32,000 bases of DNA from Dehalococcoidia bacterium (GTDB lineage Bacteria; Chloroflexota; Dehalococcoidia; Lucifugimonadales; JAGWBF01). Under the pieces are notes generated by a model. The model was not told the DNA's origin. It saw nothing but the letters and a program-made list of their open reading frames with translations, and ran no database searches. Location of the stretch: positions 1,905,433 to 1,937,432 of the forward strand of contig CBDCOF010000002.1 of assembly GCA_965219725.1 (NCBI GenBank), in the 5' to 3' direction. The position numbers and the translations under genes are program-made. Positions within the stretch are counted from its first letter, which is position 1. Each line of letters opens with the position of its first letter. Below are positions 922-23,466 of the stretch, in pieces.

Positions 922-962
922 TCTGCGTTGACCTTTGACATGCAGACACTTCCAAGGCTCCC

Positions 963-1288
963 TGTAATTATTATGAAAATAGATGCCCCCCGTCATTCCG
1001 GCGCAGGCCGGAATCCAGGGGTGGGGCGGTGGACTCCCGCTTTCGCGGGAGTGACGGTAGGGAGGCCGACCGTCATTTTCATCCCCTTACGTAGCCCGCA
1101 AGGGACATGGGGAATTATTATGAAAATAGCGAGCGCCAGGTTCCCCCACCACACCCTGAAGGGTGCGGCATCCCCCACCCACCGTCATTCCCGCCCTTTA
1201 TTCTGTCATTCCCGCGAAAGCGGGAATCCAGGGTTCCGCAGCTTCGGAGCCGATGCGAAGTCACCCACACCCCGCCCCTGAATCCAGG
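963..1288. repeat. Cluster of family-1 nested-palindrome repeats, inverted relative to the 17.2-18.0 kb array
   Basis: Contains GTCATTCCGGC-GCAG-GCCGGAATCCAGGGG, GGACTCCCGC-TTTC-GCGGGAGTGAC, GTCATTCCCGC-GAAA-GCGGGAATCCAGGG and ATTATTATGAAAATAG modules. 965-1058 is close to the reverse complement of 17911-18003. Confidence 0.85.
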
Positions 1289-4277: not shown

Positions 4278-6008
4278 CTATAGGCCCTGTAGTCCCTCCC
4301 CCGGAAAATCCACTGTCCCGTCCACGTACAGGATATGCAGGGTGGCGACGGCGCTTAGCTCCAGTTGAGCGCCCTGCACCTCGTCCTGGATGTCCAGGTT
4401 GCTGCGCAGTTTGGCCAGCAGTCCGGCAACCGGCATTTGCCCGTCTATGAGGTGTACCAGCCAGGCCACCAGGCTGCTGCATGGCGTTCCCTCGGGCTGG
4501 CCGGGGGTGGCGAGGACGTATCCCCACACAAACTCACCCTCTCCCACCACCGGCTTCCGATGGACCTGCACCCCCTCCGCAAGCCTGGGCACCGCGTGAT
4601 AGACCGGGTTCCTGGTTATATCCGAGTGGGTGCGGGCGGCTGCCAGACGCTCCCGGCGGCCTGCCCGCCCTTCTTCCACCATGTGGACACTGCTCACGAA
4701 TTGGTGCGGGGCCTCGCCTTGCTCAAGTACCACCCGCTCGTATCCCCTGGGGGGCTGGCCGGCTACGGCCTGGATGAAGGCGTGCCTGGGGGAGAGGCTT
4801 TCTTCATCGCCCAAAAGGCGCCGGGCTTCCCAGAAGTAGGAATCAACTGTGCGGTTGCTGGAGTAAAACAGCTTTGCCATTTCGCGAAAATGGTTGTATT
4901 CCTTGTAGTATAGCTCCTTGTAGACCTGTCCTGCCGCCTCTTTCATGCCGGGGTCCTTCAGCGCTGTGGTCACGTAGGCGGCAGCGAGGACCCCCGACAT
5001 GAGGGCTAGATGCACCCCCGAGGAGAAGAGAGGGTCTACGAAACATGCCGCGTCACCCACCAGGATATAGCCGTCTCCCACCACCCGCTCGGAGACGTAG
5101 GACCAGTCCCGGACGATGGATGGGCCGGAGACCAACTTTGCGTCCTTCAACATCCAGGCAGTGTGGGGCGCTTGGGCAATCTGGTCCATGAGGAAGCCCT
5201 CGGCACCCCTGCTGCTGATGCCCTCCTGCCCTGTGGGGCTGTCCACAACGGCCCCCACGCTTGCCCAACCCGTATGCAGGGGTATGTTCCAGAGCCAGCC
5301 GTGTTGGTAGGCTTCGATGAAGATGTTGGTCTCGGCGGGTCCGGGCAGCCTCTGAGACCCGGCAAAGTAGGCGTAAACGGCCAGGTTCTGGAAGAAGGGG
5401 TCCCACTGGCGCAGTTGAAGCCTCCGCCCAAGCAGGCCCACCTGTCCGGTGGCATCCACGATGAACCGGGCGCGGGCGACGCCCTCCCCAGTCCTGTCCC
5501 CGGCCCCGGAATCGTCCCCCAGCCTGTCATAGGCGTAGCGGACACCCACTGCCCTGTCATCCTCGAACAGGACCTCCAAGGCCCGGTGCCCCTCTCGCAC
5601 ATCCACTCCGGCGGCCCGGCTGTTCTCCAGGAGAAGCTGGTCGAACCGGGGCCGCCAGACCTGGTAGGAGTGGGGGTTTCCCTGGTTGGTCTCCTTGAAG
5701 TACCAACTCCATGGTTCCCTCTCCCTGCCCCACACCATAGTGGCCCCCCATTTGGGCAGGAACCCCGCTTCCTGGATGGCGGGCAGCGCCCCAAGCTCAT
5801 CCAGCACTGGGATGCTGGCGGGGAGCAGAGACTCGCCCACGTGGTCCCGGGGGAAATGCTCCCTTTCCAGCAGAAGCACCTTCCAGCCCTTCCGCGCCAG
5901 CATTGTGGCGGTGGTGGTGCCTCCCGGCCCGCCGCCAACGACTATCACATCAGAGAGCACGTCGGCGTCAAGGCCGGCTTTGTCCATTGATGACGAAGGC
6001 GATGACAT
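4278..6008 (-). CDS. Flavin-dependent halogenase family protein (Trp_halogenase-type) with a long C-terminal extension
   Basis: 576 aa. Shows an N-terminal GGGPGG dinucleotide fold, the halogenase-signature WxWxIP motif (GWLWNIPL) and FVDPLFSSGVHLA (FxxPxxSxG). About 150 extra C-terminal residues have a PqqD-like pattern (VPRLAEGV ... LVHLIDGQMPVAGLLAKL). The ATG is 3 nt after the upstream ORF's stop. Confidence 0.85.
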   Translation of the reverse strand: MSSPSSSMDKAGLDADVLSDVIVVGGGPGGTTTATMLARKGWKVLLLEREHFPRDHVGESLLPASIPVLDELGALPAIQEAGFLPKWGATMVWGREREPWSWYFKETNQGNPHSYQVWRPRFDQLLLENSRAAGVDVREGHRALEVLFEDDRAVGVRYAYDRLGDDSGAGDRTGEGVARARFIVDATGQVGLLGRRLQLRQWDPFFQNLAVYAYFAGSQRLPGPAETNIFIEAYQHGWLWNIPLHTGWASVGAVVDSPTGQEGISSRGAEGFLMDQIAQAPHTAWMLKDAKLVSGPSIVRDWSYVSERVVGDGYILVGDAACFVDPLFSSGVHLALMSGVLAAAYVTTALKDPGMKEAAGQVYKELYYKEYNHFREMAKLFYSSNRTVDSYFWEARRLLGDEESLSPRHAFIQAVAGQPPRGYERVVLEQGEAPHQFVSSVHMVEEGRAGRRERLAAARTHSDITRNPVYHAVPRLAEGVQVHRKPVVGEGEFVWGYVLATPGQPEGTPCSSLVAWLVHLIDGQMPVAGLLAKLRSNLDIQDEVQGAQLELSAVATLHILYVDGTVDFPGEGLQGL

Positions 6009-6011
6009 AGA

Positions 6012-6338
6012 CTATTCCCTTATCTCCAGCAGTCTCATCTGCGCCAGGCGACGGATGCTCACCATCACCTGCTCGGCGTCGGCGTTGTCCTCGGTCACGC
6101 AGGCCGAGACCAGGGCCTCCAATGGGTATTCGAGGCCGGGGTCTTCCTCCAGCCGCCGCCAGAGCTTGCTTTCACACACGCTTAGCGCCGTGGAACGGAA
6201 GGTCTGCATATCCATCAGTACAATCCGTTCCCCGGCGCTGCGGCTATAAACATGCTGTGGAATGACAGCGCGTAACATCTCCGCCATCGTTCCCGTTTCT
6301 ATCGAGACCTTTGCATAACTCTCTATGCGGGCCAACAT
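6012..6338 (-). CDS. Small hypothetical protein, possible PqqD-like peptide-binding (RRE-type) domain
   Basis: 108 aa. Its stop is 3 nt from the halogenase ATG, and the halogenase SD (AAGGGA) lies in its 3' end. Pattern GERIVLMD-QT ... KLWRRL ... LEALV ... VMVSIRRLAQMRLLEI resembles PqqD topology. The start is uncertain (M1 at 6338 or M18 at 6287). Confidence 0.5.
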   Translation of the reverse strand: MLARIESYAKVSIETGTMAEMLRAVIPQHVYSRSAGERIVLMDMQTFRSTALSVCESKLWRRLEEDPGLEYPLEALVSACVTEDNADAEQVMVSIRRLAQMRLLEIRE

Positions 6339-6371
6339 CGTGGAGGGGGTACATCCCTTTCCCAGCGGGAA

Positions 6372-6419
6372 ACCCCACCCCTGGATTCCGGCCTACGCCG
6401 GAATGACGGTTACGCAAAG
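6372..6419. repeat. Family-1 repeat, single half-element
   Basis: CCCCTGGATTCCGGC-CTAC-GCCGGAATGACGGTTACGCAAAG is nearly identical to 10327-10373. Confidence 0.8.
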
Positions 6420-6453
6420 GTCTCCTTCTATTCCTTGCTCGGCAAGCCTGGGC

Positions 6454-7698
6454 CTAGCCGGGTGTCGCAACCTGTTCGATGGGTTTGTTGGTTGCGGGGT
6501 CAACCTCGAAGGAGCTGGGCAACTCCAGTTCCTTGGCTATCTCACGCACGGCGGGGATGACCTCTTGGCCAAAGAGCCGGATGCTGCGCATGGAGTCTTC
6601 ATGGGTCATGGCGCCATCGCCGTCCCAGAAGAAGATACTGCCGGGCCGTACCTGCTCCAATACGTGCCTTATCTTGGGGATGACTGTATCCGGTGTACCG
6701 GTGATGATGCTATAGCTGTTTATTTGCTCGTCGTAGGAGCGGCTGAATGCCCCTCCACGGCCTACGGGGGCCGATCTCAGGGTGGGCAGCGTCCTGGTGC
6801 GGGATGTCAGGCCGGGCAGGGTCGAAACTGCTTGATTCTGGATGCCCTCGTTGCCTGCCAGGAAGGGGTTGCTGGGGCCTTGGAGGTACTTGTGGGCGGT
6901 CTCCTGCGCCAACTCCTCCGTCTCGTCCACGTGGACCCTCCAGAGATACCCCAGGTTCTGGGGGCCAGCCTCGTAACCCATCTCGGCGGCCTCGTCCCTA
7001 TATATCTGGAACGCCTCCTTTGTGGGTTCTATATCCGTTGCCAGCATGATGTAGGGAATCCGGTTCCTGGCAGCCCACATCAGGGAGTCCCGGCTGATGA
7101 CGCCCGGCAGCCAGATGGGAGGATGGGGTTTCTGGTAGGGCCTCACCCAGGGGTTCACGTAGCGGTACTGGTAGTGTTTGCCTTCCCATCGGAAGGGGCC
7201 GGGGTCCGTCCACGCCTTCACGACAAAGTCGTGGGCCTCCTGGAACCGCTCCCAGTTGTAGGGCGGGGGGATGTTGTGGGCAACGCTCTCCCGGCCCGTG
7301 CCCCGGACCCAGCCGGAGACCAGCCTGCCGTGAGAGATCATGTCAATCATGGCAAGCTGCTCCACCAGCCACAGGGGGTCGTCCCACAGGGGCAAGATGT
7401 TGCCCAAGAGGACGATTTTGGACTTCTTCGTGATGCGGGCCAGGACTGACGCCTCCACATTCATGGCGCCCCCCATGCAGAAGGGGGTGCTGTGGTGCTC
7501 GTTGAGCATCATGGCGTCAAAGCCCACTTCTTCCACGTAGATTTTCTCATCCAGGTAGCGGTTATATAGCTCTGCGCCCACTTGGGCGTCGTAGGTGTCG
7601 TTGCTGATGTTCAGGTCCTGGATGGGCCTTCCGGTTGACCCGAAGTACCCGGACTTGGGGTCCTGGTAAGGCCGCTCTGTGAAGTATCCTATAAGCAT
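6454..7698 (-). CDS. Luciferase-like monooxygenase (LLM class flavin/F420-dependent oxidoreductase), paralog 1
   Basis: 414 aa with the LNEHH motif and a TIM-barrel LLM pattern (GRL--G---G). GGAGG lies 5 nt upstream of the ATG. Confidence 0.9.
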   Translation of the reverse strand: MLIGYFTERPYQDPKSGYFGSTGRPIQDLNISNDTYDAQVGAELYNRYLDEKIYVEEVGFDAMMLNEHHSTPFCMGGAMNVEASVLARITKKSKIVLLGNILPLWDDPLWLVEQLAMIDMISHGRLVSGWVRGTGRESVAHNIPPPYNWERFQEAHDFVVKAWTDPGPFRWEGKHYQYRYVNPWVRPYQKPHPPIWLPGVISRDSLMWAARNRIPYIMLATDIEPTKEAFQIYRDEAAEMGYEAGPQNLGYLWRVHVDETEELAQETAHKYLQGPSNPFLAGNEGIQNQAVSTLPGLTSRTRTLPTLRSAPVGRGGAFSRSYDEQINSYSIITGTPDTVIPKIRHVLEQVRPGSIFFWDGDGAMTHEDSMRSIRLFGQEVIPAVREIAKELELPSSFEVDPATNKPIEQVATPG

Positions 7699-7757
7699 TG
7701 CCGCCTCCTGATAACATTTTCAGGTATGGGGCTACTGTTGGACTTGATTGGATTGAG

Positions 7758-7824
7758 AGGAGGGTTTCCCGGAAGGAAACTCTCCTATTGATAAGCCGCC
7801 AAGCGGTCTCGCCTGGCGGCTTAT
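7758..7824 (-). other. Two adjacent stable stem-loops between the LLM paralogs
   Basis: 7758-7786 has 12-bp arms with one mismatch (AGGAGGGTTTCC / GGAAACTCTCCT) and a 5-nt loop. 7791-7824 has 11-bp perfect arms (ATAAGCCGCCA / TGGCGGCTTAT) and a 12-nt loop. No U-tract follows on the minus strand. Confidence 0.4.
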
Positions 7825-7838
7825 TCCGTCATGGTGTC

Positions 7839-9107
7839 TTAGCTGTTGGATGGACCGGCCCCGTTGCCCACGGCAACTGCATCTTCGGTGGGCTTGCCGG
7901 TGGCGGGATTTACCTCAAATGGGCCGGGCAGGTCCAGTTCCTTGGCCATTTCCCGCACTGCCGGGATTACCTCTTCGCCCATGAGCCTCAGGCTGCGCAT
8001 GGAGTCTTCGTGGGTCATGGCTCCGTCGCCGTCCCAGAAGAAGATGCTGCCGGGCCGCAGGTACTCGAGGACGTGGCGTATCTTGGGTATTACCGTCTTG
8101 GGCGAGCCTACGGTGATGGTGTAGTTCTCAAGCTGGTCCTCGTAGGACCTCTGCAATGCTCCCCCGCGACCTGTGGGGGCCACAGACCTGGTGGGGAGCA
8201 CCCTGGTCCTGGAGGTGAGGCCGGGAAGCTGGATCAATGCGCTGTTCTGGATGCCCTCATTGCCTGCCAGGAAAGGGTTGCTGGGGCCCTGAACGTACTT
8301 TCTGCCTATCTCAATGGCCATCTGGTCGGTCTCATCCACGTGGACCTTCCACAGGTAGCCTATGTTCTGGGGTCCCGACTCGTAGCCCATCTCGGCGGCT
8401 GTCTCGTGGTATAGGTCGAAAGCCTGCCTGGTTGGACCTAGCTCTGTGGACAGCATTATGTAGGGGATGCGGTTCCTGGCAGCCCATAGCAAGGAGTCAC
8501 GGCTGATGACACCCGGCAGCCAGATTTGAGGATGGGGCTTCTGGTAGGGCCTCACCCAGGGGTTGACATAGCGGTACTGGTAGTGCTTGCCTTCCCATCG
8601 GAAGGGGCCTGGGTCCGTCCACGCCTTCACCACAAAGTCGTGGGCTTCCTGGAACCGCTCCCAGTTGTAGGGCGGGGGGATGTTGTGGGCCACGCTCTCG
8701 CGGCCCGTGCCGCGCACCCAACCGGATATGAGACGGCCGTGGGAGATCATATCTATCATGGCAAGCTGTTCCACCAGCCACAGGGGGTCGTCCCACAGGG
8801 GAAGGATGTTGCCCAGGAGGGCAATCCTGGCCTTCTTGGTTATCCGCGCCAAGATGGAAGCCTCCACGTTCATGGCGCCGCCCATGCAGAAGGGGGTGCT
8901 GTGATGCTCATTGAGCATCAGGCAGTCGAAGCCCACCTCTTCAGCGTAAATCTTCTCGTCCAGATACCTGTTGTACAGGTCTGCTCCCAGGTGTGCGTCA
9001 TATATATCGTTGCTGAGGTCCAGGTCCTGTATGGGTTTCCCCGTTGAGCCGAAGTACCCAGACTTCGGGTCCTGATAGGGTCGTTCCGTAAAGTACCCTA
9101 TGAGCAT
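7839..9107 (-). CDS. Luciferase-like monooxygenase, paralog 2 (tandem duplicate)
   Basis: Highly similar to 6454-7698, including a 65-aa identical stretch SGWVRGTGRES...YQKPHP. The track start GTG 9113 overlaps the SD GAGGAGG. ATG 9107 gives MLIGYFTERPYQ, the same N-terminus as paralog 1, with 5-nt SD spacing. Confidence 0.9.
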   Translation of the reverse strand: MLIGYFTERPYQDPKSGYFGSTGKPIQDLDLSNDIYDAHLGADLYNRYLDEKIYAEEVGFDCLMLNEHHSTPFCMGGAMNVEASILARITKKARIALLGNILPLWDDPLWLVEQLAMIDMISHGRLISGWVRGTGRESVAHNIPPPYNWERFQEAHDFVVKAWTDPGPFRWEGKHYQYRYVNPWVRPYQKPHPQIWLPGVISRDSLLWAARNRIPYIMLSTELGPTRQAFDLYHETAAEMGYESGPQNIGYLWKVHVDETDQMAIEIGRKYVQGPSNPFLAGNEGIQNSALIQLPGLTSRTRVLPTRSVAPTGRGGALQRSYEDQLENYTITVGSPKTVIPKIRHVLEYLRPGSIFFWDGDGAMTHEDSMRSLRLMGEEVIPAVREMAKELDLPGPFEVNPATGKPTEDAVAVGNGAGPSNS

Positions 9108-9177
9108 TGTCACCTCCTCATCTTGCTACCTATCCCACGGGCATAGCCAAGACCCGGCTGCCCGGGCCAAGACAACT

Positions 9178-9212
9178 GGCGGTATTATAATACCGCCTCA
9201 GCTAGTTGTCCA
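9178..9212 (-). promoter_or_regulatory. Palindrome GGCGGTATTATAATACCGCC overlapping a candidate internal promoter (TGGACA-17-TATAAT)
   Basis: On the minus strand, -35 TGGACA is at 9212-9207 and -10 TATAAT at 9189-9184, about 75 nt upstream of LLM paralog 2. The 20-bp perfect palindrome at 9178-9197 could equally be a hairpin or an operator. Confidence 0.3.
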
Positions 9213-9273
9213 TTGATAGACGCCATTGGCTGCTTTCACACTGTTTATACCATAACCGAGGGCTTACATAGCA

Positions 9274-10077
9274 TCAGGAGCCGGAGAGGAACCCCTGCAC
9301 CAGGCGGACGAACTCGTCGGGCTTCTCCACCTCTGGGCGGTGGCCGCAGTTGTCTATGATGGACAACCGAGAACCTCTGATGGAATCTCGATATACCTCG
9401 CCCACGCTCAGGGGGACTATGGGGTCTTCCCTCCCCCAGATGATGCGGGTGGGGAGGTTTCTGACCATCCGCAGCAGATGGGGCAGGGCGGGATAGTGCA
9501 TGTAGGGCCTCCAACTCAGGCGGCAAGACTCCTCCCTGGCTATTTCCCATGCTTCGGCCTGTTCAGGGGTGGCTTCATCGGGGCATATCGTCTGGAACTC
9601 GGGGGTGTTGGCCGGGTCCAGGACGCTGTTGGTGATGTACTCCCTGGCGACCACCAGGAACATATCGTAGATTTCCCCGTCGGGGGGCCGTATTCCGGGG
9701 GCATCTACTATAATCATCTTCTTGAACCTATCGGAGCACATGGTAGCCATCTCTGCGGAGAGCCATCCACCTATGCCTAGACCCATGACGTTGACCTGGC
9801 CTAGTCCCAGGTCATCCATGGCGCCCAGATACCAGCCGCTCATGTCCCGCATGTTCATTATCCAGTCCAGCCTGGGCGACTTTCCATAACCGGGGTGTGA
9901 GGGTATATACAGGGTATAGTCCTGTGCCAGGGCTTCGTGAGAGCGCAGCCAGGCGTGATGGCCTATCTCATCATGGAGGACAAGCAGGGGTTCTCCTCTG
10001 CCTCCCTTGATAAGCTGTATCTGGGACCCCCCCACGTTGACTGTCTCTTCCGTCCAAGTCTGGGAACTTATGGTCAT
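9274..10077 (-). CDS. Alpha/beta-hydrolase fold protein (meta-cleavage-product-hydrolase-like) lacking the nucleophile Ser
   Basis: 267 aa. The nucleophile elbow reads VNVMGLGIGGW (G-L-G-I-G-G where G-x-S-x-G-G is expected, codon GGC). HD replaces the usual HG (LLVLHDEIG). The acid (REDPIVP) and His (NCGHRP) positions are retained. Confidence 0.85.
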   Translation of the reverse strand: MTISSQTWTEETVNVGGSQIQLIKGGRGEPLLVLHDEIGHHAWLRSHEALAQDYTLYIPSHPGYGKSPRLDWIMNMRDMSGWYLGAMDDLGLGQVNVMGLGIGGWLSAEMATMCSDRFKKMIIVDAPGIRPPDGEIYDMFLVVAREYITNSVLDPANTPEFQTICPDEATPEQAEAWEIAREESCRLSWRPYMHYPALPHLLRMVRNLPTRIIWGREDPIVPLSVGEVYRDSIRGSRLSIIDNCGHRPEVEKPDEFVRLVQGFLSGS

Positions 10078-10127
10078 CTTTATGCTTCCTTCTCAGGCAT
10101 CTCTAGTTGAGCATAGACATGGTCCTG

Positions 10128-10177
10128 ACAATATTGTAAGTCCGCCCGATTATAGGACGGCGCTCATTTCTTGTCAA
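10128..10177 (-). promoter_or_regulatory. Consensus sigma70-type promoter plus a downstream 10-bp palindrome
   Basis: The minus strand reads TTGACA (10177-10172), a 17-nt spacer, then TATAAT (10154-10149). The perfect palindrome ACAATATTGT (10128-10137) lies just after the expected transcription start. The hydrolase ATG (10077) is about 65 nt downstream with GAAGGAAG as SD. Confidence 0.55.
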
Positions 10178-10244: not shown

Positions 10245-10373
10245 GAAAATAGATGCCCACCGTCATTCCCGCTAAGGCGGGAATCCAGGGTCCCACGACG
10301 TAGGCGGCCATTGCGAGTCACCCACCCCCCATCCCTGGATTCCGGCCTACGCCGGAATGACGGTTACGCAAAG
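10245..10373. repeat. Family-1 composite element (complete two-hairpin unit)
   Basis: GAAAATAGATGCCCACC-GTCATTCCCGC-TAAG-GCGGGAATCCAGGGT ... CCCTGGATTCCGGC-CTAC-GCCGGAATGAC-GGTTACGCAAAG. The two roughly 30-bp arms are inverted copies of each other. Confidence 0.85.
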
Positions 10374-11071: not shown

Positions 11072-14000
11072 TCATCCGCCGGACTCCCCAGGGATGGAAG
11101 TGGTGGCGGGCGTGAGGGTGACGGCGGTGCTGCTCAGCCATTGGTTGGCCTCGGCGTCGGAGGGGAGGAAGCGGGCCGACGGGAGCAGGCGCTCACCCCA
11201 TTCGCCGCTCGTGTCCTGCTGCTGGAGGGCGAACTCGACGCGGCCATCGGCCAGCAGCTGCGCGGTGATGCGTATCACAAGGCTTGGGTCGCCCTCGAGG
11301 ATGGTCAGCTGGGAACTGTTCAACCAGGTCCCGGCCGCGGCGCCAGAGGGGAAGAAGCGGGCCGACGGGAGCATTCGCTCGCCCCATTCGCCGTTGGAGT
11401 CCTGCTGCTGGAGGGCGAACTCGACGCGGCCATCGGCCAGCCTCTGCGCGGCGATGCGTACCACGAGGCTTGGGTCGTCCTCGAGGACGGTCAGCGAGGA
11501 ACTGTTGGACCATGTCCCGGTCGCGGCGTCGGAGGGGAGGAAGCGGGCGGTTGGGAGCATTCGCTCGCCCCATTCGCCGTTGGAGTCCTGCTGCTGTAGG
11601 GCGAACTCGACGCTGCCGTCGGCCAGCCTCTGGGCGGAGATGCGCAGCACCAGGCCTGGGTCGCCCTCAATGACGGTCAGGGGGGAACTGTTCAACCATT
11701 GCCCGGTAGCGGCGTCCGAGGGGAGGAAGCGGGCCGATGGGAGCATACGCTCGCCCCATTCGCCGTTCCGGTCCTGCTGCTGGAGGGCGAACTCGATGCT
11801 GCCGTCGGCCAGCCTCTGTGCGGAGATGCGCACGTCGACCCCGGAGGTCCCGCTGCCCACCGGCCCTTGGTCCGCACTGCCCACAGTCACTGCGACCTCG
11901 ATCTGCGCGGAGGCTGCCGGACTCCCGTCGTCGGTGGCGGTGACGGTCAGCGAGTAGACGTTGGTCCCGGCGGAACTGCCGGTCGTATCGAGGTCGCCGG
12001 TGCCGGCCAGGGTCAGGCTGCCCTCTTGGTCTATCTCGAACCCCGACGCGTCGGGTCCCGACAGCGACCACGTAACGGTGTCGCCCTCGGGGTCTTCGGC
12101 CTGGTACTGGGCGATGGGACTGTTGTGGTCTTCGTCCAGGGAGATTGCGGCATCTCCGGTGACCGGGCCTACCTCGTTGATGTTGGTGACCTGTACGTCA
12201 ACGCGCAGGGTGTCGGTCCGGCTGGGAGAGCCGTCGTCGGTGGCCCGTATCCTCACCCGGTAGGTGTTGCCTCGGAAGCCGGCGGGGTCCTCGTAGTCCG
12301 GCGACTCCTTGAAACTGAGAGAGCCATCCCCAGAGATTGTGAACTTATCGCCGTCCTCTCTGCCCACTATCTGGATGTCCCAGGATATAGCATCGTCGTC
12401 CGGGTCGTTAGCCGTGTAGGTGGCGACGGGGCCGGTCCCGTTCTCCTGGTACGATGGGTTGACTGGTCCTTCTATATTGGGGCGCCGGTTCGCGCCTCCT
12501 CCTCCTCCTCCGCCACCACCGCCGTTGTTGGTGGGAGAAGGGGGATTGGGCCCGGGGGTAGTGGTGGGGGTAGGGGTAGGGGTGGTAGGTGGGGGGGACC
12601 CGTCGCTGATGGTCACTGTAGCGCCGCTGGGCGAACCCGCCTCCACACCCGTGAGGGTGCCGAAACCCAGATTGATGGTCTCGTCCTCTGTGTCTGAGTC
12701 TGCGGTGGTAGTAATGGTGAAAGACTTGGAGTCATCTCCCGCGTTGAAGACTAGCTCGTTGCTCCCCGTCAGCCCAGTAATAGTATAATCGTCGGCTTCC
12801 GCATTACCGCTAATGGTTATCGGGACCGTCACCGTTGAGGTGGCCTGGGAGGACAGATTAACCTCGACCGTAATCGGATCTCCCTCCTCTTCACTGTAGG
12901 TTGAGGCCCCATAGCTCACCGTAATGGGCGCGCCGGTGTCGCTGGCTTCTATGGTGATGGTCTCCGGGTCGGTGGTGGTACTGCCATGCCTGGCCGTGAC
13001 CATGATGGTCTCTCTGGGCTCATTGTCATCGTCGTCCACCGCGGTGATGGTGGCCGCCGTGGACTCGCTCTGCCCGGTCCGGAGGGTGAGGGTATCGGAG
13101 GAAACGTTGTAGTCCTCCGCCCCCGCCGTGCTGCCGGTGAAGTCCAGGGTGATGGTCTGGTCTTCCGCAAAGGTGACGCCGTTGGTGATGGAGACGGTCA
13201 CTGTCGAATCTTCTCCCTCGGTGATGGAGTTGTGGGTGACTAACAGGCCGAACTCGGCGGTGTCGTTGTCCCGGACGATCACCGAGGCCGAGCGCGCGCC
13301 AGCAATCTGGTAGCGCGACGGAGCCGTAATGGTTGCTGTGATTACGCTGTTGTCCTTCACTACCGTATCGTTTTCCGTCTCTACCGTCAGGGTGGCAGTG
13401 TCGGCGCCTACTTCGAAAGTCACCGACGACGGTGCATCGTCGCTTACCACGGACCCGGGATCTGAAACCCTCACGTTCACGCTCAGTTCGTTCGCGGTGT
13501 CCCCGGAGCGGACCAGGGTGAAGGCCGCCGGTCTGCCCTCGTTGACCATGCCCCTGGATGGTGGTGCGATGGAGACTGTGGGACCTGTCACATCGTCGAC
13601 GTCGAAAATGTTCACTGTTATGCTGTTGTCCTCCATTGGCGATATGATGGTATCCCCAGTATCGTTCACCACCTCATGGGTCAACCTCACTCCCAGGTTA
13701 TCTTGATCGTCTTCGTCCTCGCCTGCGGTCACTATCATAGCCTGTGGCGAATCCCAATTGCCGTCATAGCTCCCCCCACATCGGCTGTTGCCAGTCTTGA
13801 GCTGAGCCGTTGACTCCACTGTTATACCCGTATTCGCCGTACCCCGCACAAATACCCACAAAGTTTCGTTACACCCAACATTGCCGAACTCCGCGGGGTT
13901 TTTGTCAAAATACACTCTGTAAGTGGCTGTTCCCTCCTCGCTAACGTTCAGGGTGGTGGGTTTCACTATCAGCTTGGGAGGCTCGTTGGTCTGGGCGGAG

Positions 14001-14110
14001 GCCGGATGGGCCAGGAGGAGCATGGCGGCAACCACGCCGGCGGCGCATACCGCGAGTATCCCGGCAAGGGCCAGGGTGAGCCGAGGGTGTCCAAGTAAGT
14101 TCATCATCAC
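11072..14110 (-). CDS. Large secreted/cell-surface protein: signal peptide, Calx-beta-like domains, P/T- and Gly-rich linker, two cadherin-like domains, four C-terminal 62-aa repeats
   Basis: 1012 aa. The N-terminus (LTLALAGILAVCAAGVVAAMLLLAHPASA-QT) is signal-peptide-like. Repeated acidic motifs (VDDDDNEPRE, TADSDTEDET) look like Calx-beta. DPDDDAISW...YRVRIRATDDG...VTNINE and DPEGDTVTW...TATDDG look like cadherin. Confidence 0.9.
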   Translation of the reverse strand: MMMNLLGHPRLTLALAGILAVCAAGVVAAMLLLAHPASAQTNEPPKLIVKPTTLNVSEEGTATYRVYFDKNPAEFGNVGCNETLWVFVRGTANTGITVESTAQLKTGNSRCGGSYDGNWDSPQAMIVTAGEDEDDQDNLGVRLTHEVVNDTGDTIISPMEDNSITVNIFDVDDVTGPTVSIAPPSRGMVNEGRPAAFTLVRSGDTANELSVNVRVSDPGSVVSDDAPSSVTFEVGADTATLTVETENDTVVKDNSVITATITAPSRYQIAGARSASVIVRDNDTAEFGLLVTHNSITEGEDSTVTVSITNGVTFAEDQTITLDFTGSTAGAEDYNVSSDTLTLRTGQSESTAATITAVDDDDNEPRETIMVTARHGSTTTDPETITIEASDTGAPITVSYGASTYSEEEGDPITVEVNLSSQATSTVTVPITISGNAEADDYTITGLTGSNELVFNAGDDSKSFTITTTADSDTEDETINLGFGTLTGVEAGSPSGATVTISDGSPPPTTPTPTPTTTPGPNPPSPTNNGGGGGGGGGGANRRPNIEGPVNPSYQENGTGPVATYTANDPDDDAISWDIQIVGREDGDKFTISGDGSLSFKESPDYEDPAGFRGNTYRVRIRATDDGSPSRTDTLRVDVQVTNINEVGPVTGDAAISLDEDHNSPIAQYQAEDPEGDTVTWSLSGPDASGFEIDQEGSLTLAGTGDLDTTGSSAGTNVYSLTVTATDDGSPAASAQIEVAVTVGSADQGPVGSGTSGVDVRISAQRLADGSIEFALQQQDRNGEWGERMLPSARFLPSDAATGQWLNSSPLTVIEGDPGLVLRISAQRLADGSVEFALQQQDSNGEWGERMLPTARFLPSDAATGTWSNSSSLTVLEDDPSLVVRIAAQRLADGRVEFALQQQDSNGEWGERMLPSARFFPSGAAAGTWLNSSQLTILEGDPSLVIRITAQLLADGRVEFALQQQDTSGEWGERLLPSARFLPSDAEANQWLSSTAVTLTPATTSIPGESGG
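11095..11836 (-). repeat. Four in-frame tandem repeats, 186 bp / 62 aa each, within the surface-protein CDS
   Basis: The landmark GCGGGC(C/G)G recurs at 11171, 11357, 11543 and 11729, giving an exact 186-bp period. The unit is RI-AQRLADG-(V/I)EFALQQQD-NGEWGERMLPSARF(L/F)PS-AA-G-W-NSS-LT. Confidence 0.9.
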
Positions 14111-14454: not shown

Positions 14455-14595
14455 TAGCCAGGCCCCAGGCCGGAATCCAGGGGTGGGGGTGGGTGACTCG
14501 CAGTGACCGCCTACATCGCGGGACCCTGGATTCCCGCGAAAGCGGGAATTGCCCATGGCCTTGCAAAGGCCAAGTAAGGGGATGAAAATGACGGG
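14455..14595. repeat. Family-1 element (left hairpin truncated)
   Basis: GGCCGGAATCCAGGGGTGGGGGTGGGTGACTCGCAGTGACCGCCTACATCGCGGGACCCTGGATTCCCGC-GAAA-GCGGGAAT ... GGATGAAAATGACGG is colinear with the unit of the 17.2-kb array. Confidence 0.8.
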
Positions 14596-17235: not shown

Positions 17236-18003
17236 GCCGGCTATTTTCATAATAATTCCCCATGGCCTTGCGGGCCACATACGAGGATGAAAATGACGGC
17301 AGCCTCCCCACCGTCATTCCGGCGTAGGCCGGAATCCAGGGGTGAGGGGTGGGTGACTCGCAATGGCCGCCTACGTCGCGAGACCCTGGATTCCCGCTTT
17401 CGCGGGAATGACGGTGCTGGTGGGTGTCTATTTTCATGGTAATTGCCCCTGCCCCTGCGGGCCACATACGAGGATGAAAATGACGGCAGCCTCCCCACCG
17501 TCATTCCGGCGTAGGCCGGAATCCAGGGGGGGGGTGACTCGCAATGGCCGCTTACGTCGCGAGACCCTGGATTCCCGCTTTCGCGGGAATGACGGTGCTG
17601 GCGGGTGTCTATTTTCATGGTAATTGCCCCTGCCCCTGCGGGCCACATACGAGGATGAAAATGACGGCAGCCTCCCCACCGTCATTCCGGCGTAGGCCGG
17701 AATCCAGGGGGGGGTGACTCGCAATGGCCGCTTACGTCGCGAGACCCTGGATTCCCGCTTTCGCGGGAATGACGGTGCTGGCGGGTGTCTATTTTCATGG
17801 TAATTGCCCCTGCCCCTGCGGGCCACATACGAGGATGAAAACCCTATTTTCATAATAATTGCCCCTGCCCCCGCGGGCCGCATACGAGGATGAAAATCGT
17901 ACGGTTTCCCCACCGTCACTCCCGCGAAAGCGGGAGTCCACCGCCCCGCCCCTGGATTCCGGCCTACGCCGGAATGACGGTGGGCATCTATTTTAATAAT
18001 AAT
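17236..18003. repeat. Array of family-1 composite units: about 3.3 near-identical tandem copies (180-181 bp) plus degenerate flanking copies
   Basis: The unit start CTATTTTCAT recurs at 17242, 17428, 17609 and 17789. Each unit has three parts: ATTTTCAT..(40 nt)..ATGAAAAT; GTCATTCCGGC-GTAG-GCCGGAATCCAGGGG; and a 40-nt spacer followed by CCCTGGATTCCCGC-TTTC-GCGGGAATGAC. 17845-18003 is a diverged copy. Confidence 0.9.
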
Positions 18004-18111: not shown

Positions 18112-18639
18112 ATGTCTGCAAACAAAAATGAGGGTGGTGTCTTGGTAACTAAGGATGAGTTTCGACGGTGCATGTCCGAGTTCGCGACAGGGGTCACGGT
18201 AGTAACTACCCTGGACGAAGAGGGTGAGATACATGGCATGAGTGCCAACTCCTTTACCTCGGTATGTCTTGAGCCGCCCATAGTCTTGGTGTGTGTTGCC
18301 CATAACACCAACACCTACCGGTTGGTCGAGAACCGGAAGTCCTTTGGGATCAACATCCTCAGCGGCGACCAGGAGGGTGTGGGCAAGTATTTTGCCAGGA
18401 GGCCCGAGGACAGGACCGGAGACGTTGGCTACGATTATTCTCTATCGTCAGCCTGTGAGGTGCCGGCCCTGAAGGGTGCCCTGGCCTTTTTCGGCTGTCA
18501 GGTTGTGGACTCCTACGTGTATGGAGACCACACCATATACATAGCCGAGGTTAAGGAGATATACAAGGGCGAGCCTGGGGGTGTACCCCTCCTGTTCTTC
18601 GAGAGCAGGTGGTACGGGAACATGGACATGGCAGGCTAG
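18112..18639 (+). CDS. Flavin reductase family protein (HpaC/NADH:flavin oxidoreductase-like)
   Basis: 175 aa with the FRR-MSEFATGVTVVTT motif, S-NSFTSV-L-PP--LV and GDH-I-I-EV. The ATG 18112 overlaps a TATAAT string and has a weak SD. TTG 18142 (after GAGGGTGG) is an alternative start. Confidence 0.85.
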   Translation: MSANKNEGGVLVTKDEFRRCMSEFATGVTVVTTLDEEGEIHGMSANSFTSVCLEPPIVLVCVAHNTNTYRLVENRKSFGINILSGDQEGVGKYFARRPEDRTGDVGYDYSLSSACEVPALKGALAFFGCQVVDSYVYGDHTIYIAEVKEIYKGEPGGVPLLFFESRWYGNMDMAG

Positions 18640-19507: not shown

Positions 19508-20959
19508 ATGTTGGCACAGAATTGGCGAAGCATAATAAGGGACCTGGAAAGCATAGTAGGCAAGGAGCATGTAATCTATCACCCGGAAGACCTGCTGGTC
19601 TTTGAGTACGACGGCTCCATAGACAAGGCTACTCCCCAGGCCGTGGCGTTTCCCGCATCCACCGAGGAGACCAGCCGGGTCGTGGCCCTTGCCCATAGGG
19701 AGGGCGTTCCGGTGGTTGGGAGGGGTTCGGGCACCGGCCTGAGCGGGGGTGCCATAGCCAGCCTTGGCGGTATCCAGGTAGCCCTCACCCGCATGAGGCA
19801 AGTCTTGGAGATTGACACGACTAACCGGGTGGCAGTGGTCGAGCCGGGGGTGGTGAACCTGGACCTGGATACCTATGCCCACAAGTTCGGCCTACGCTAC
19901 GCCCCGGACCCCTCCAGCCAGAAGGCTTGCAGTCTGGGGGGCAACATTGCGGAGAACGCGGGAGGCCCCCACTGCCTGGCCTATGGGGTCACGTCCAACC
20001 ACGTGCTGGGTATGGAGGTGGTGCTGGAAGACGGCTCGGTATCCTGGCTGGGCGGCAAGACCGCAGAATCGCCGGGGTATGACCTCCGGGGCGTCTTCAT
20101 AGGCTCCGAGGGGACCTTTGGCATCGCCACCAAGATTGTGGTCCGGCTCCTGCCCATCCCCGAGTCGGTGAAGACCCTCCTGGGCGTGTTCCCGGACGTG
20201 GACTCTGCATGTACGGCTGTCTCCAGCACCATAGGCCAGGGCATCGTACCCGCCGCCATGGAGATAATAGACGCGGCATGTATCAAAGCCATCCTCAACG
20301 TGACCAAGGGAGTCTTCCCCGACGATGCAGGGGCGGTCCTTCTGGTAGAGGTGGAGGGACTGATAGAAGAGGTTGATGAACTGAGCGCGGAAGTTGAGGC
20401 CACCATGTACGACACTGGGGCTATGGAGGTCAAGATAGCCCTGGATGCCCAGGAACGGGAGCGGCTGTGGTCGGCCCGCAAGGGCGCTTTCGGAGCGCTG
20501 GGCAGCCTGGCCCCTAACTACTACCTGGTGGATGGCGTGGTCCCCCGGACCCGGCTCACCGAGACCCTACGAAGGGTTGCCGAGATCGGTGACAGGTACG
20601 AACTTCTCGTAGCCAATGTATTCCATGCCGGAGACGGGAACCTCCACCCTTGCATCGCCTTCGACGATAGGGAGCCGGGCGCCTCGGAGAAGGTGCTAGC
20701 GGCGGGAGAGGAGATGATGGGCCTGTGCGTGGAGATGGGGGGGACTCTTTCGGGAGAGCATGGAATCGGCCTGGAGAAGAAGGCATTTATGCCCCTTATA
20801 TTCACCCAGCAGGATATGGACACTATGATGAAGGTGCGCAGCGCCTTCTCCCCGGTTGGCATCTTCAATCCGGGCAAGATTTTCCCCGGCGGCCCCGAGT
20901 ACGACCAGGCTATGCAGCGCAGGGCCGTGTCCAGCGTAGGCCCGGGAGCGCACATCTAG
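19508..20959 (+). CDS. glcD: Glycolate oxidase subunit GlcD (FAD-linked oxidase)
   Basis: 483 aa with a PCMH-type FAD-binding domain (RGSGTGLSGG, GYDL) and the C-terminal GG--SGEHGIG-K motif. GlcE- and GlcF-like genes lie downstream. Confidence 0.9.
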   Translation: MLAQNWRSIIRDLESIVGKEHVIYHPEDLLVFEYDGSIDKATPQAVAFPASTEETSRVVALAHREGVPVVGRGSGTGLSGGAIASLGGIQVALTRMRQVLEIDTTNRVAVVEPGVVNLDLDTYAHKFGLRYAPDPSSQKACSLGGNIAENAGGPHCLAYGVTSNHVLGMEVVLEDGSVSWLGGKTAESPGYDLRGVFIGSEGTFGIATKIVVRLLPIPESVKTLLGVFPDVDSACTAVSSTIGQGIVPAAMEIIDAACIKAILNVTKGVFPDDAGAVLLVEVEGLIEEVDELSAEVEATMYDTGAMEVKIALDAQERERLWSARKGAFGALGSLAPNYYLVDGVVPRTRLTETLRRVAEIGDRYELLVANVFHAGDGNLHPCIAFDDREPGASEKVLAAGEEMMGLCVEMGGTLSGEHGIGLEKKAFMPLIFTQQDMDTMMKVRSAFSPVGIFNPGKIFPGGPEYDQAMQRRAVSSVGPGAHI

Positions 20960-20987
20960 CCCGCGCATATCCAATGGGAGGGAGAAG

Positions 20988-21341
20988 TTGACCACCCGCA
21001 CCGAAGAATATACTGCCATGAGCCGGAAGTTTTTCAGGGAAGCTGTGGAAGCCCTGGCGGAGGATGACCTGGTACAGGCTTCCGGGAAACTGTGGGACGC
21101 TGCCGCCCAGATGGTTGAGGCCGTTGCCGAAAGGCGCGGATGGCCTCACCACGACCACCGGGACCTGTACCTGATTGTAGAGAGACTTGCCGGTGAGACG
21201 GGAGATCGCAGGCTGATACACCTCTTCCAGTATGCCAGTGGCCTAGAGGGCAACTTTTATGAAAACTGGCAACCCATAGAATTTGTCCAGCGAGGGGTTG
21301 AGCAGATACGGGAGTTCATGGAGAAGATGGAGGCGCTCTAG
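20988..21341 (+). CDS. All-helical 117-aa protein, PaREP1 / HEPN-fold-like, paralog 1
   Basis: TTG start after GGGAGGGAGAAG. Pattern EAVEALAEDDLVQASGKLWDAAAQMVEAVAERRGWPHHDHRDLY...LEGNFYEN. One of three equally long tandem paralogs. Confidence 0.8.
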   Translation: MTTRTEEYTAMSRKFFREAVEALAEDDLVQASGKLWDAAAQMVEAVAERRGWPHHDHRDLYLIVERLAGETGDRRLIHLFQYASGLEGNFYENWQPIEFVQRGVEQIREFMEKMEAL

Positions 21342-21372
21342 TTTTCCGGTCAAGTCTGGTCTGGAGGGGAAA

Positions 21373-21726
21373 GTGACCACCCGCACCGAAGAATATACCG
21401 CCATGAGCCGGGAGCTTTTCAGGAAAGCTGTAGAAGCCCTGGAAGAGGATGACCTGGTACAGGCTTCTGAGAAGCTGTGGGGCGCTGCTGCACAGATGGT
21501 CAAGGCCGTTGCCGAAAGGCGTGGATGGCCTCACCGACAGCACCGAGACCTGTACCGGACGGTGGATAGGCTTGCTGCTGAGACTAGGGATGACGGTCTT
21601 ACACACCTGTTCGGGTATGCGAGTGAGTTGCATACCAACTTTTATGAACATTTGCGGCTCAGAGGCTTTATCGAGGAAGGGGTTGGGTATATACGAGAAT
21701 TAATAGATAAGCTGGAGGCACTTTAG
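21373..21726 (+). CDS. PaREP1 / HEPN-fold-like protein, paralog 2
   Basis: GTG start after GGAGGGGAAA, 385 bp after the paralog 1 start, and 117 codons long. The track ORF from ATG 21283 overlaps the end of paralog 1 in another frame and is not supported. Confidence 0.8.
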   Translation: MTTRTEEYTAMSRELFRKAVEALEEDDLVQASEKLWGAAAQMVKAVAERRGWPHRQHRDLYRTVDRLAAETRDDGLTHLFGYASELHTNFYEHLRLRGFIEEGVGYIRELIDKLEAL

Positions 21727-21757
21727 ATTTGCTGTCAATTCTGATTGGAGGAGGAAG

Positions 21758-22111
21758 TTGACTACCCGTACCGAAGAATATACTGCCATGAGCCGGGAGC
21801 TTTTCCAAAAGGCCGTGGAAGCCTTGGCAGAGGATGACCTGGTACAGGCTTCATGGAATCTGTGGGAGTCTGCGGCACGGATTGTTGAGGCCGTGGCTGA
21901 GAGGCATGGATGGCCTCACCGCGACTACCGGGACTTCTACCGGACTGTGGATAGGCTTGTTGCCGAGACAGGGGATAGCGGGATCGCATTCCTGTTCGCC
22001 TATGCCAATGGGTTGTATGAAAACTCCTTTGAAAACTGGCGGTCTAGGGGCTTTGTCCAGCAGGCAGTTGAGAGGATACGGGAGTTCATAGAGAAGATGG
22101 AGGCGCTTTAG
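21758..22111 (+). CDS. PaREP1 / HEPN-fold-like protein, paralog 3
   Basis: TTG start after GGAGGAGGAAG, 385 bp after the paralog 2 start, and 117 codons long. The C-terminus IREFIEKMEAL is close to that of paralog 1. Confidence 0.8.
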   Translation: MTTRTEEYTAMSRELFQKAVEALAEDDLVQASWNLWESAARIVEAVAERHGWPHRDYRDFYRTVDRLVAETGDSGIAFLFAYANGLYENSFENWRSRGFVQQAVERIREFIEKMEAL

Positions 22112-22120
22112 TTTTCCGTT

Positions 22121-23464
22121 ATGACATCGTTGTCGGATAAGCTGGTCGAGTCCCTGGAGAAGGATGCCCTGCTGCCCTTGGAGCAGCTGCCGGACTACGC
22201 AGTAGATGGGCTGGTCCCTGAGATGGTTGTTTTCCCCAGGGATGTGGGGTCCGTCTCCCAGGCCCTGTCTATTGTGTCCAGGCATGGGAAGAGGGTCGTG
22301 CCCTGGGGGGGCGGGACTCAGATGGCCCTGGGCAATGTGCCCGGTGGGGTCGACCTGGCACTGGGCCTCCGGCGGCTTGACCGCATCCTCTTCCATGAGC
22401 CTGGGGACCTGGTGGTCGGGGTAGAAGCCGGAGCAACCCTCAAGTCTCTCCAGGATGAGCTTGCCAAACAGGGACAGTTTCTACCCCTGATGGCCCCCAT
22501 CCCGTCCCGGGCTACCATTGGGGGAGTCCTGGCAGCCAACGCCGGCGGCCCCTTCAGGCTGGGCTACGGCGCTGCCAGGGACTGGCTCATAGGCATCAAG
22601 GTGGCGCACTCCGACGGCGCCGTCGCCAAAGCGGGCGGCAAAGTGGTCAAGAACGTGGCCGGCTATGACCTGAACAAGCTCTATACAGGCTCCCTGGGCA
22701 CCCTGGGCGTAATCGTGGAGGCCAACTTCAAGCTGGTCCCCCTGCCACCTGAGAGGCGGACAATTGTAGCTGCCTATTCCTCCCTGTCTGCCGCCCTGGA
22801 CGCAGCCCAAGGGCTTCTCCAACAGACTTCCATCCCCCAGGCGCTGCAAGTCATCAATCGAGGGATTATTGATAGGCTTCCGGGGCTGAACATCGCCGGT
22901 GATGGGGAGGCCGTCCTGCTGGCCCTCTTTGCAGGTAGAAGGTCGGCTGTGAAAAGGAAGGTGGATGACTCAACCCGGCTATTAAAGGGCGACGCCGCGA
23001 CTATAGACGACCTGGCCCAGAATGACGGCGACGGCCTATGGCAAGCCATAACCGACACGGGATGGGAAGAGGAGAGTCCACCCCTCCTTATGGCCAGGGC
23101 TATCTCCCTGCCGTCTCAGGTGGGGGATGTGTTGGCGATGGTTGATAGTCTCTCCTCGGGACAGGGGGTTATGCCGCCGGGGATTATGGCAGACGTGGGG
23201 GTGGGCCTGGTCCGCCTCGTGTGGTGGACGGAGGATAACATGCCCGACACGAGGGCAACCCTCGATGACCTGGTAAAGGGACTGCGCGACGGGATGCGTG
23301 GCTATGCGGGCCATCTCGTAATTGAGAGATGCCCGGTGGAGTTGAAACGCAGCATGGACGTATGGGGAGACTCTATGGAGGGTATGGATATTATGAGGCG
23401 GATCAAACATGAGCTAGACCCGGCAGGGATACTCAATCCGGGCCGCTTTGCAGGGAGAATATAG
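22121..23464 (+). CDS. glcE: Glycolate oxidase FAD-binding subunit GlcE-like
   Basis: 447 aa with a PCMH FAD-binding domain (GGGTQ, GG-VVKNVAGYDL-KL--GS-GTLG). No SD precedes the ATG, which lies 9 nt after the paralog 3 stop. Confidence 0.85.
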   Translation: MTSLSDKLVESLEKDALLPLEQLPDYAVDGLVPEMVVFPRDVGSVSQALSIVSRHGKRVVPWGGGTQMALGNVPGGVDLALGLRRLDRILFHEPGDLVVGVEAGATLKSLQDELAKQGQFLPLMAPIPSRATIGGVLAANAGGPFRLGYGAARDWLIGIKVAHSDGAVAKAGGKVVKNVAGYDLNKLYTGSLGTLGVIVEANFKLVPLPPERRTIVAAYSSLSAALDAAQGLLQQTSIPQALQVINRGIIDRLPGLNIAGDGEAVLLALFAGRRSAVKRKVDDSTRLLKGDAATIDDLAQNDGDGLWQAITDTGWEEESPPLLMARAISLPSQVGDVLAMVDSLSSGQGVMPPGIMADVGVGLVRLVWWTEDNMPDTRATLDDLVKGLRDGMRGYAGHLVIERCPVELKRSMDVWGDSMEGMDIMRRIKHELDPAGILNPGRFAGRI

Positions 23465-23466
23465 AA

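Follow-up and report, generated by a model that had tools for sequence, protein, structure and literature searches.

A conserved hydrolase-monooxygenase-halogenase cluster of Dehalococcoidia and its lineage-specific extension by a PqqD-like gene

Among the flavin-dependent halogenases (FDHs) of known substrate, CndH, the chondrochloren halogenase (PDB 3e1t), and FasV act on non-ribosomal aromatics, tyrosine-derived and polyketide respectively. Small stand-alone proteins of the PqqD family are, to our knowledge, peptide chaperones in every characterised case. In the deep ocean, in sponges and in the subsurface, few uncultured bacteria are more abundant than the Dehalococcoidia, to which SAR202 belongs; their luciferase-like flavin monooxygenases (LLMs) are thought to attack recalcitrant organic matter, and substrates are known for almost none of them. 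Here we describe a cluster of five co-oriented genes in a 32-kb (32,000-nt) window of a Dehalococcoidia contig (CBDCOF010000002.1), the whole stretch of DNA that was analysed and in whose coordinates all positions are given. The cluster lies on the minus strand at 4278–10177 and encodes a protein of the alpha/beta-hydrolase fold (ABH), two LLMs (LLM1 and LLM2), a small PqqD-like protein and an FDH. We found nothing in the literature describing an ABH-LLM-FDH module, or a recognition element (RRE) of the kind known from peptides that are synthesized ribosomally and modified post-translationally (RiPPs) that forms a fusion or a pair with a flavin-dependent halogenase. Our tentative interpretation is that the locus is a lineage-specific elaboration of an ABH-LLM-FDH cluster conserved in Dehalococcoidia, in which RRE-type elements would position the substrate for halogenation.

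A scan of one genome per species yielded 586 confirmed relatives of the FDH, with the C-terminus included in the conservation. They are mostly from Dehalococcoidia, as judged from the best 80 of the 586, from which the taxonomy was taken: almost all of these belong to that class (including SAR202 and Tepidiformaceae), together with Entotheonella and one member of the Acidimicrobiaceae. The best relatives are 50–70% identical over the full length. An LLM gene is located directly upstream of the FDH gene at 55 of 85 FDH loci, often at a spacing of 0–170 nt and sometimes overlapping it, and the complete order ABH-LLM-FDH was found at about 31 of the 85; tandem LLM genes occur at one other locus (L046). 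Seen from the LLM side, with metagenome LLM orthologues 62–83% identical to the query, an ABH gene is present upstream at 40 of 56 assessable loci (71%), and an FDH gene is found downstream in the same orientation at 27 of 64, with convergent FDH genes at 5 more. An earlier note on this DNA, made from the letters of the window, had taken the five genes for one unit. The conserved core is instead ABH-LLM-FDH, kept in hundreds of species of Dehalococcoidia and in Entotheonella. To this core a second LLM and the small ORF are added only rarely and in a lineage-specific way, a homologue of the PqqD-like gene being found at only 1 of the 85 FDH loci (L001). Since ABH-LLM pairs without an FDH and FDHs without an LLM both occur, the enzymes need not share one substrate.

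FDH subfamilies without an LLM gene adjoin genes encoding an HpcH/HpaI aldolase, an Amidohydro_2 protein, a thiamine-pyrophosphate enzyme, a molybdopterin oxidoreductase, a GMC oxidoreductase or a cyclase. In one of them, a conserved protein of about 70 aa beginning MCRSIKTLRR..., judged by eye to be probably DUF2277, is encoded directly downstream of the FDH at four loci (L013, L015, L023 and L035) and about 1.9 kb away at L027; an aldehyde-oxidase-type molybdopterin oxidoreductase gene lies upstream. A putative cyclase gene (PF04199, a family that includes kynurenine formamidase and isatin hydrolase) was observed directly downstream of the FDH gene, and co-oriented with it, at about 12 SAR202-type loci (L016, L018, L020–L022, L024, L029, L032, L036, L039, L045 and L073), and further downstream at L028 and L030; the window does not contain it.

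The identification of the FDH in the earlier note was borne out. The protein matches PF04820 (Trp_halogenase) with 134.2 bits against a gathering cut-off of 21 (E 7.7e-39), its catalytic domain spanning approximately residues 17–420, and residues 19–418 share 36–39% identity with CndH (3e1t, E 3e-90) and FasV (8zop, E 1e-79), to whose structures the catalytic domain also aligns in Foldseek with E of about 1e-32. The three motifs that had been pointed out were all read directly in the sequence: i) the FAD-binding GxGxxG motif as GGGPGG (residues 25–30), with G25, G26, G27, P28 and G30 invariant in an alignment of 28 FDH relatives (A1); ii) WxWxIP as GWLWNIPL (residues 237–244), with W238, W240, I242 and P243 invariant in the 28 relatives; and iii) FxxPxxSxG as FVDPLFSSG (residues 323–331). 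The catalytic Lys is present as K86, which is invariant in A1 and pairs in the phmmer alignment with K76 of CndH, taken here to be the catalytic (chloramine-forming) Lys of that enzyme (Buedenbender et al. 2009). Matches to QhpG (E 1.6e-9) were also obtained, and those to Trp halogenases were weak (E about 2e-6). The top NCBIfam model was that of CmlS (NF033113), which covers residues 19–417 only and scored 279 bits against an equivalog cut-off of 900, and assignment as a CmlS orthologue was therefore rejected. Membership of the QhpG, LodB or GoxB maturase families was likewise rejected, with scores under the cut-offs (206 against 240, 126 against 400 and 91 against 400 bits, respectively) and no qhpC/qhpD, lodA or goxA neighbour in the window. 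By its sequence, the protein is a genuine CndH-type flavin-dependent halogenase; an exact look-up of the sequence returned no record. An acidic, Gly-rich insertion of about 10 residues, DRLGDDSGAGDRTGEG, is located at residues ~160–175 (window ~5484–5531). It was found only in the window FDH and a relative 96% identical to it, and disorder is predicted for it (pLDDT below 50).

Similarity to CndH and FasV ends at about residue 418, the remaining ~150 residues being unrelated to them in sequence. This C-terminal part is conserved family-wide, with invariant residues in alignments A1 and A3. AlphaFold2 (AF2) models gave it a pLDDT of 80–93 (82.5 for the isolated domain), and the order of strands (E) and helices (H) in the isolated domain, with which the full-length model agrees, is E42-50, E53-62, E65-71, H73-81, H88-98 and H104-123. 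These are the three strands followed by three helices that make up the strict definition of the RRE topology (PMC12710340). When the isolated domain was submitted to Foldseek, the top match was GdmN (7vzq, E 2.3e-3), a carbamoyltransferase, in whose family RREs have been reported; other matches included PqqD (5sxy, E 5.6e-3, TMt 0.68, rmsd 3.5 Å), TbiB1 (5v1u, probability 0.6–0.85, TMt 0.62–0.65) and QhpG (7ctq, E 0.12). The PqqD-like character that the earlier note had seen in this extension thus stands at the level of the modelled fold, with the RRE topology and with PqqD and TbiB1 among the top Foldseek matches, but not at the level of sequence or profile similarity. The full-length FDH model aligns with CmlS over 581 columns, C-terminus included, and the NCBIfam QhpG model covers FDH residues 21–510 and thus enters the C-terminal domain. 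QhpG, which acts on a peptide, is reported to consist of a CmlS-like catalytic domain and a winged-helix domain; since an extended winged-helix C-terminus is therefore already known in CmlS and QhpG, the architecture of the FDH has precedents.

The small ORF between LLM2 and the FDH is present at 6012–6338 as had been noted, but its product is likely to be 91 rather than 108 aa. Because the upstream ATG at 6338 is replaced by ATA in the sister strain (L171) and the nearest relative of the ORF has 91 aa, translation most likely starts at ATG 6287. The close coupling to the FDH was confirmed, the stop codon TAG being followed by TCT and then by the FDH ATG, and the same 3-nt spacing was found in every relative. 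Relatives of the small ORF are few, as an exhaustive search among 1.8 billion representatives gave only five clusters; those with a readable context all lie between an LLM and an FDH gene, 3 nt before the FDH ATG. The proposed likeness to PqqD and RREs was recovered in the family profile, which aligns end to end (residues 9–89) with TbiB1, the RRE of a lasso peptide (E 7e-5), and more distantly with a lasso PqqD-family chaperone (E 0.25), but the window copy itself had no match in the Pfam scan. PF05402 was matched by 4 of 7 family members, all below the gathering score (best E 4.2e-4; the L001 copy reached 20.4 bits against the cut-off of 23.4). An origin of the small gene by duplication of the domain fused to the FDH was unsupported, with a probability of 0.3% in hhalign between the C-terminal domain and the small-ORF family. 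Other small ORFs upstream of the FDHs at the 85 loci are unrelated to it (ArsR-like helix-turn-helix proteins, DUF-type proteins and shadow ORFs), and the intergenic DNA preceding the PqqD-like gene has nothing in common between lineages.

Both LLMs pass the PF00296 gathering threshold of 27.9 bits (LLM1, 102.9; LLM2, 110.7), in agreement with the earlier assignment, and are 81% identical to each other. The nearest PDB entries to LLM1 are 7bip, 8cbb (a LuxA) and 2i7g, with 1brl as another LuxA-like near structure. The best NCBIfam model, TIGR03858, gave 76 bits against a cut-off of 462, the F420-type models scored lower, and the nearest structures are those of FMN enzymes. The subfamily is unusually conserved, being about 80% identical across orders. 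The exception is a loop following the conserved LPGLTSR motif, which varies greatly in length, by 0 to about 45 extra residues (columns 300–375 of alignment A4; LLM1 residues ~296–320); it may correspond to the mobile loop of luciferases. The translational start of LLM1 is probably ATG 9107, since the LLM family alignment begins there (MLIGYF/MFIGYF) and a GGAGG Shine-Dalgarno sequence precedes it.

The ABH matches PF00561 (Abhydrolase_1, 59 bits) and PF12697 (Abhydrolase_6, 54 bits), and its best PDB and NCBIfam matches are the meta-cleavage-product hydrolases CumD, BphD and HsaD; all NCBIfam scores were far below the equivalog cut-offs. It had been described as a Ser-less hydrolase, and this proved correct. 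Its nucleophile elbow reads GLGIGG, in which Gly101 (codon 9775–9777) occupies the column of the Ser in the GFSLGG of close relatives, which is aligned with a Ser/Ala position in CumD, whereas the Asp (WGREDPIVP) and the His (NCGHRP) are kept. In a survey of two sets of loci (L037–L085 and L128–L168), Gly was found at the nucleophile position in 18 of 36 syntenic homologues of one set and 17 of 45 of the other, with His retained throughout and Asp replaced once, by Glu. The Gly forms make up one deep clade entirely (GLGFGGF) and also turn up singly inside the Ser clade, namely in the window, Entotheonella (L047) and L136/L137. To judge from these alignments the Ser-to-Gly replacement is a natural, recurrent change, which suggests a non-hydrolytic or water-activating function for the Ser-less protein.

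Features of the cluster are listed in Table 1. The perfect promoter that the earlier note had placed before the five genes was confirmed on the minus strand (10177–10149); the ABH gene starts 72 nt downstream of it, at ATG 10077. When the whole window was scanned with the 29-nt pattern, allowing no more than 1 mismatch, 2 sites were detected against 0.02 expected, and both flank genes of the cluster. As the second site (9212–9184) is a near-consensus one upstream of LLM1, the cluster probably has two strong promoters, not one. A hairpin with a perfect 8-bp stem (GGCGGTAT TATA ATACCGCC, 9178–9197) contains the -10 region of the second site; it could be a regulatory element or an overlap of terminator and promoter. 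No Rfam family was matched in or around the cluster, and a search of the window for tRNA genes detected none.

Table 1. Features of the cluster and the flavin reductase gene in window coordinates
Feature	Position	Strand	Basis or remark
Sigma-70-type promoter, TTGACA-17 nt-TATAAT, no mismatch	10149..10177	-	-35 at 10177-10172, -10 at 10154-10149
ABH, alpha/beta-hydrolase-fold protein, 267 aa	9274..10077	-	ORF list; Pfam
Second promoter-like site, TGGACA-17-TATAAT, 11/12 matches	9184..9212	-	Between ABH and LLM1, upstream of LLM1
LLM1, luciferase-like (LuxA-type) flavin monooxygenase, 422 aa from ATG 9107	7839..9113	-	PF00296
LLM2, tandem paralogue of LLM1, 414 aa	6454..7698	-	PF00296
Copy of the repetitive extragenic palindromic (REP)-like repeat, between LLM2 and PqqD-like gene	6380..6407	-	
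PqqD-family (RRE-type) small protein, 108 aa as drawn, 91 aa likely	6012..6338	-	
Flavin-dependent halogenase (FDH), CndH/CmlS-like 'variant B', 576 aa	4278..6008	-	
C-terminal domain of the FDH, kept throughout the FDH family	4314..4577	-	AF2 models, Foldseek
Flavin reductase, possible source of reduced flavin, outside the conserved module	18112..18639	+	PF01613

In the mechanism that we propose for the cluster, two sigma-70-type promoters would drive the ABH gene and the LLM1-LLM2-PqqD-like-FDH unit, respectively. As expected for its family, the FDH would take up free FADH2 from an unlinked reductase and form a flavin hydroperoxide, would oxidise Cl- or Br- to hypohalous acid, to be kept on Lys86, and would thereby halogenate an electron-rich aromatic ring. 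The fused RRE-fold domain, which would cover the catalytic domain in the manner of CmlS and QhpG, may position the substrate, and in the window lineage the stand-alone protein of the PqqD family, produced in concert with the FDH, may help in this positioning. One or both LLMs, presumably FMNH2-dependent, would oxygenate the substrate of the FDH, and the Ser-less ABH may bind or process it without a covalent acyl-enzyme intermediate. Because there are two RRE-type elements and the architecture is QhpG-like, we lean slightly towards a substrate in which the aromatic residue is part of a peptide or protein segment, rather than a small aromatic compound in free form. It would go considerably further, and seems unlikely to us, to regard the FDH family as a whole (~550 aa, fused RRE fold) as a new class of peptide- or protein-directed halogenases, which would place a halogen or a modification derived from it on an aromatic residue, either of a partner protein such as the co-encoded, extremely conserved LLM or of an unlinked peptide.

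Several observations weigh against the mechanism proposed here. CmlS carries a similar winged-helix domain, yet no peptide substrate of it is known to us. The C-terminal domain of the FDH has no Pfam match and no PDB profile match at E up to 10, and the Foldseek E-values for it are weak, none being 1e-3 or lower; a high false-positive rate has been described for RRE calls made by Foldseek alone (PMC12710340). About half of the LLM loci lack an adjacent FDH, and about one-third of the FDH loci lack an LLM. The surroundings of the cluster encode neither a protease nor a transporter nor any further RiPP enzyme, the neighbours being primary or catabolic genes. Finally, in accordance with the earlier note, which had seen no obvious precursor-peptide gene, no precursor candidate was found in the window, nor a conserved one across about 170 related loci, where the screen for precursor-like small ORFs yielded the MCRSIKTLRR... 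protein, gene fragments and repeat- or tRNA-derived artefacts only. A RiPP biosynthetic gene cluster was accordingly rejected, there being no set of precursor and protease, cyclase, radical SAM protein or transporter in the window or the related loci, and no RiPP, nonribosomal peptide synthetase (NRPS) or polyketide synthase (PKS) genes were present in the FDH neighbourhoods examined. The five genes do not form a RiPP or NRPS cluster of the classical type.

A different account of the same genes, which taken as a whole we consider possible but rather unlikely, is a module for small-molecule catabolism or for the oxidation of dissolved organic matter (DOM), in which ABH, LLM and FDH act on free aromatics or phenolics. 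The LLM could then conceivably be a Baeyer-Villiger or aldehyde oxygenase with the ABH as its ester- or C-C-bond partner; the FDH could place a halogen on a ring of the phenol or pyrrole type, perhaps as a cryptic activation step; and the winged-helix domain could be a lid, as in CmlS, with the PqqD-like protein as an accessory adaptor. Such a module is consistent with the closeness of the ABH to meta-cleavage-product hydrolases, with the catabolic-type genes (HpcH/HpaI aldolase, Amidohydro_2 and others) adjoining paralogous FDH subfamilies, with the broad, near-vertical distribution of the module at 60–80% identity, with CndH and FasV as the closest characterised FDHs, and with the failure to find a precursor peptide in the window or the ~170 loci. 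It is less easily reconciled with a PqqD-family protein specifically coupled to the FDH, with the high conservation of the RRE-fold domain, or with the half of the ABHs that are without a nucleophile for hydrolysis, and no catabolic pathway is known to us in which a flavin halogenase takes part. Expansions of LLMs ('FMNO') in SAR202, proposed to oxidise recalcitrant DOM (PMC6306507), again speak for it. As to the substrate, the catabolic small-molecule reading is nearly as likely as the peptide/protein reading.

A RiPP pathway with its precursor encoded elsewhere in the genome, in which a leader would guide tailoring by the FDH and the LLM, appears improbable. Enzymes of both the LLM and FDH families are known in RiPP tailoring, and the two RRE-type elements would fit such a role; however, the distribution resembles that of a core lineage gene and not that of a patchy biosynthetic gene cluster, the ~170 loci contain no precursor, protease, transporter or cyclase, and the FDH groups with CndH, FasV and CmlS, matching Trp halogenases only at E ~2e-6, whereas the peptide-acting FDHs known to us are all Trp-halogenase-like. 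SrpI is an example of a RiPP halogenase (PMC12537861). Still less probable, in our opinion, is a protein maturase, that is, an FDH that halogenates or hydroxylates an aromatic residue of the co-encoded LLM or ABH, with the RRE fold docking the partner. Retention of the halogenase Lys fits halogenation rather than hydroxylation, the match of the protein to CndH (E 3e-90) is far closer than that to QhpG (E 1.6e-9), and the idea is weakened by the many LLM loci (about half) without an FDH nearby and FDH loci (a third) without an LLM. In its favour, the FDH gene is immediately preceded by the LLM gene, which often overlaps it or ends within 20 nt of it; the LLM is about 80% identical across orders; the NCBIfam matches to QhpG, LodB and GoxB (206, 126 and 91 bits) are significant, yet below cut-off; and QhpG likewise consists of a catalytic and a winged-helix domain. 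Mere adjacency of unrelated genes on one strand might be suggested by the second promoter and the REP-like hairpin inside the cluster and by related loci that lack one gene or another, but it is hardly credible, as the synteny counts already contradict it: dozens of divergent genomes, belonging to two phyla, have the order ABH-LLM-FDH, and the PqqD-like gene occurs only in the LLM-FDH gap.

The genes neighbouring the cluster in the window include trpD, trpC and genes encoding a glyoxalase, a cadherin/Calx-beta protein, an MMPL protein and GlcDEF-like proteins, among others; they do not make up a biosynthetic cluster, and the TrpD has its highest similarity to proteins of Dehalococcoidia. Glyoxalase and trpC were considered as conserved partners and rejected, as they are absent from the related loci except in the sister strain. 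The flavin reductase to which the earlier note had drawn attention is clearly one (PF01613, E 1e-38), but it is not part of the module, a homologue within 8 kb of the FDH gene being found at 0 of 85 related loci. The GlcD/GlcE/GlcF-like glycolate oxidase trio (19508–24789, plus strand) consists of two FAD_binding_4/FAD-oxidase_C proteins and a CCG/4Fe-4S protein, and an AraC/cupin regulator is encoded at 28677–29816. A secreted-type protein of 1012 aa (11072–14110, minus strand) contains Cadherin and Calx-beta domains, and a unit of about 66 aa (RISAQRLADGSxEFALQQQDxNGEWGERxLPxARF...) occurs four times at its C-terminus. Eukaryote-like adhesins such as this one are common in sponge symbionts.

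The window also contains dispersed REP-like repeats. A palindromic 28-mer, GTCATTCCGGCGTAGGCCGGAATCCAGG, is present in 7 copies (0 expected), and a second variant has the form ATTCCCGC-N4-GCGGGAAT. The repeats are located at 992–1019, 1208–1227, 6380–6407, 10265–10284, 10334–10361, 14530–14549 and 17313–17978, all intergenic, and in an array at 17250–17980 the two variants alternate with a period of about 185 bp. The ORFs at 928–1281 (plus strand), 17247–17648 (minus strand) and 17434–17919 (minus strand) are probably spurious readings across these repeats.

The cluster offers a concrete three-protein system for reconstitution, consisting of a halogenase with an RRE-type domain, one specific LLM and an often Ser-less ABH. 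If the FDH acts on a peptide or protein, RRE-guided chemistry would extend to flavin halogenases outside RiPP clusters, and the product would be a new post-translational modification; should this hold for the FDH family as a whole, post-translational halogenation would be a widespread, lineage-wide trait of SAR202-type bacteria, not a rare natural-product tailoring. If it acts on small aromatics, flavin-dependent halogenation would for the first time be placed in a module of catabolic type, and the habitats of Dehalococcoidia would have in it a biological source of organohalogens. Either way, the FDH family represents a large, diverse pool of halogenases for biocatalysis.

Each protein of the cluster can be set beside a described system. 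The FDH has GxGxxG, the catalytic Lys, WxWxIP and FxxPxxSxG in common with the 'variant B' enzymes CndH and FasV, but lies outside any PKS/NRPS cluster and belongs to a family that is vertically widespread in Dehalococcoidia. With CmlS (chloramphenicol halogenase, 3i3l) it shares a catalytic domain followed by a C-terminal winged-helix lobe, but the identity is 26%, the neighbouring genes are others, and CmlS was not among the top 50 Foldseek matches of the isolated C-terminal domain. The genes for QhpG, LodB and GoxB, the peptidyl-Trp hydroxylating maturases of the cysteine tryptophylquinone (CTQ) cofactor, similarly adjoin the gene for their partner or substrate, whereas the qhp, lod and gox partner genes are absent from the window; QhpG has Arg70 at the rim of the corresponding channel, and the FDH keeps the halogenase Lys. 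The small ORF resembles TbiB1 and PqqD, its family profile matching TbiB1 end to end (E 7e-5), but precursor peptide, radical SAM, protease and cyclase partners of PqqD/RRE systems are not encoded in the window. The ABH has the alpha/beta fold and the triad Asp and His of CumD, BphD and HsaD, but the nucleophilic Ser is Gly in it and in ~40–50% of its syntenic homologues. The LLMs, which belong to PF00296 like the SAR202 'FMNO' and LuxA-type enzymes and come from a host class known for LLM expansions, differ in forming a subfamily of about 420 aa that has a loop of variable length and goes together specifically with an ABH (71%) and a halogenase (~50%). Compared with these systems, the single parts are of known kinds, and what is new is their combination, its wide conservation in an uncultured lineage and the added PqqD-family partner.

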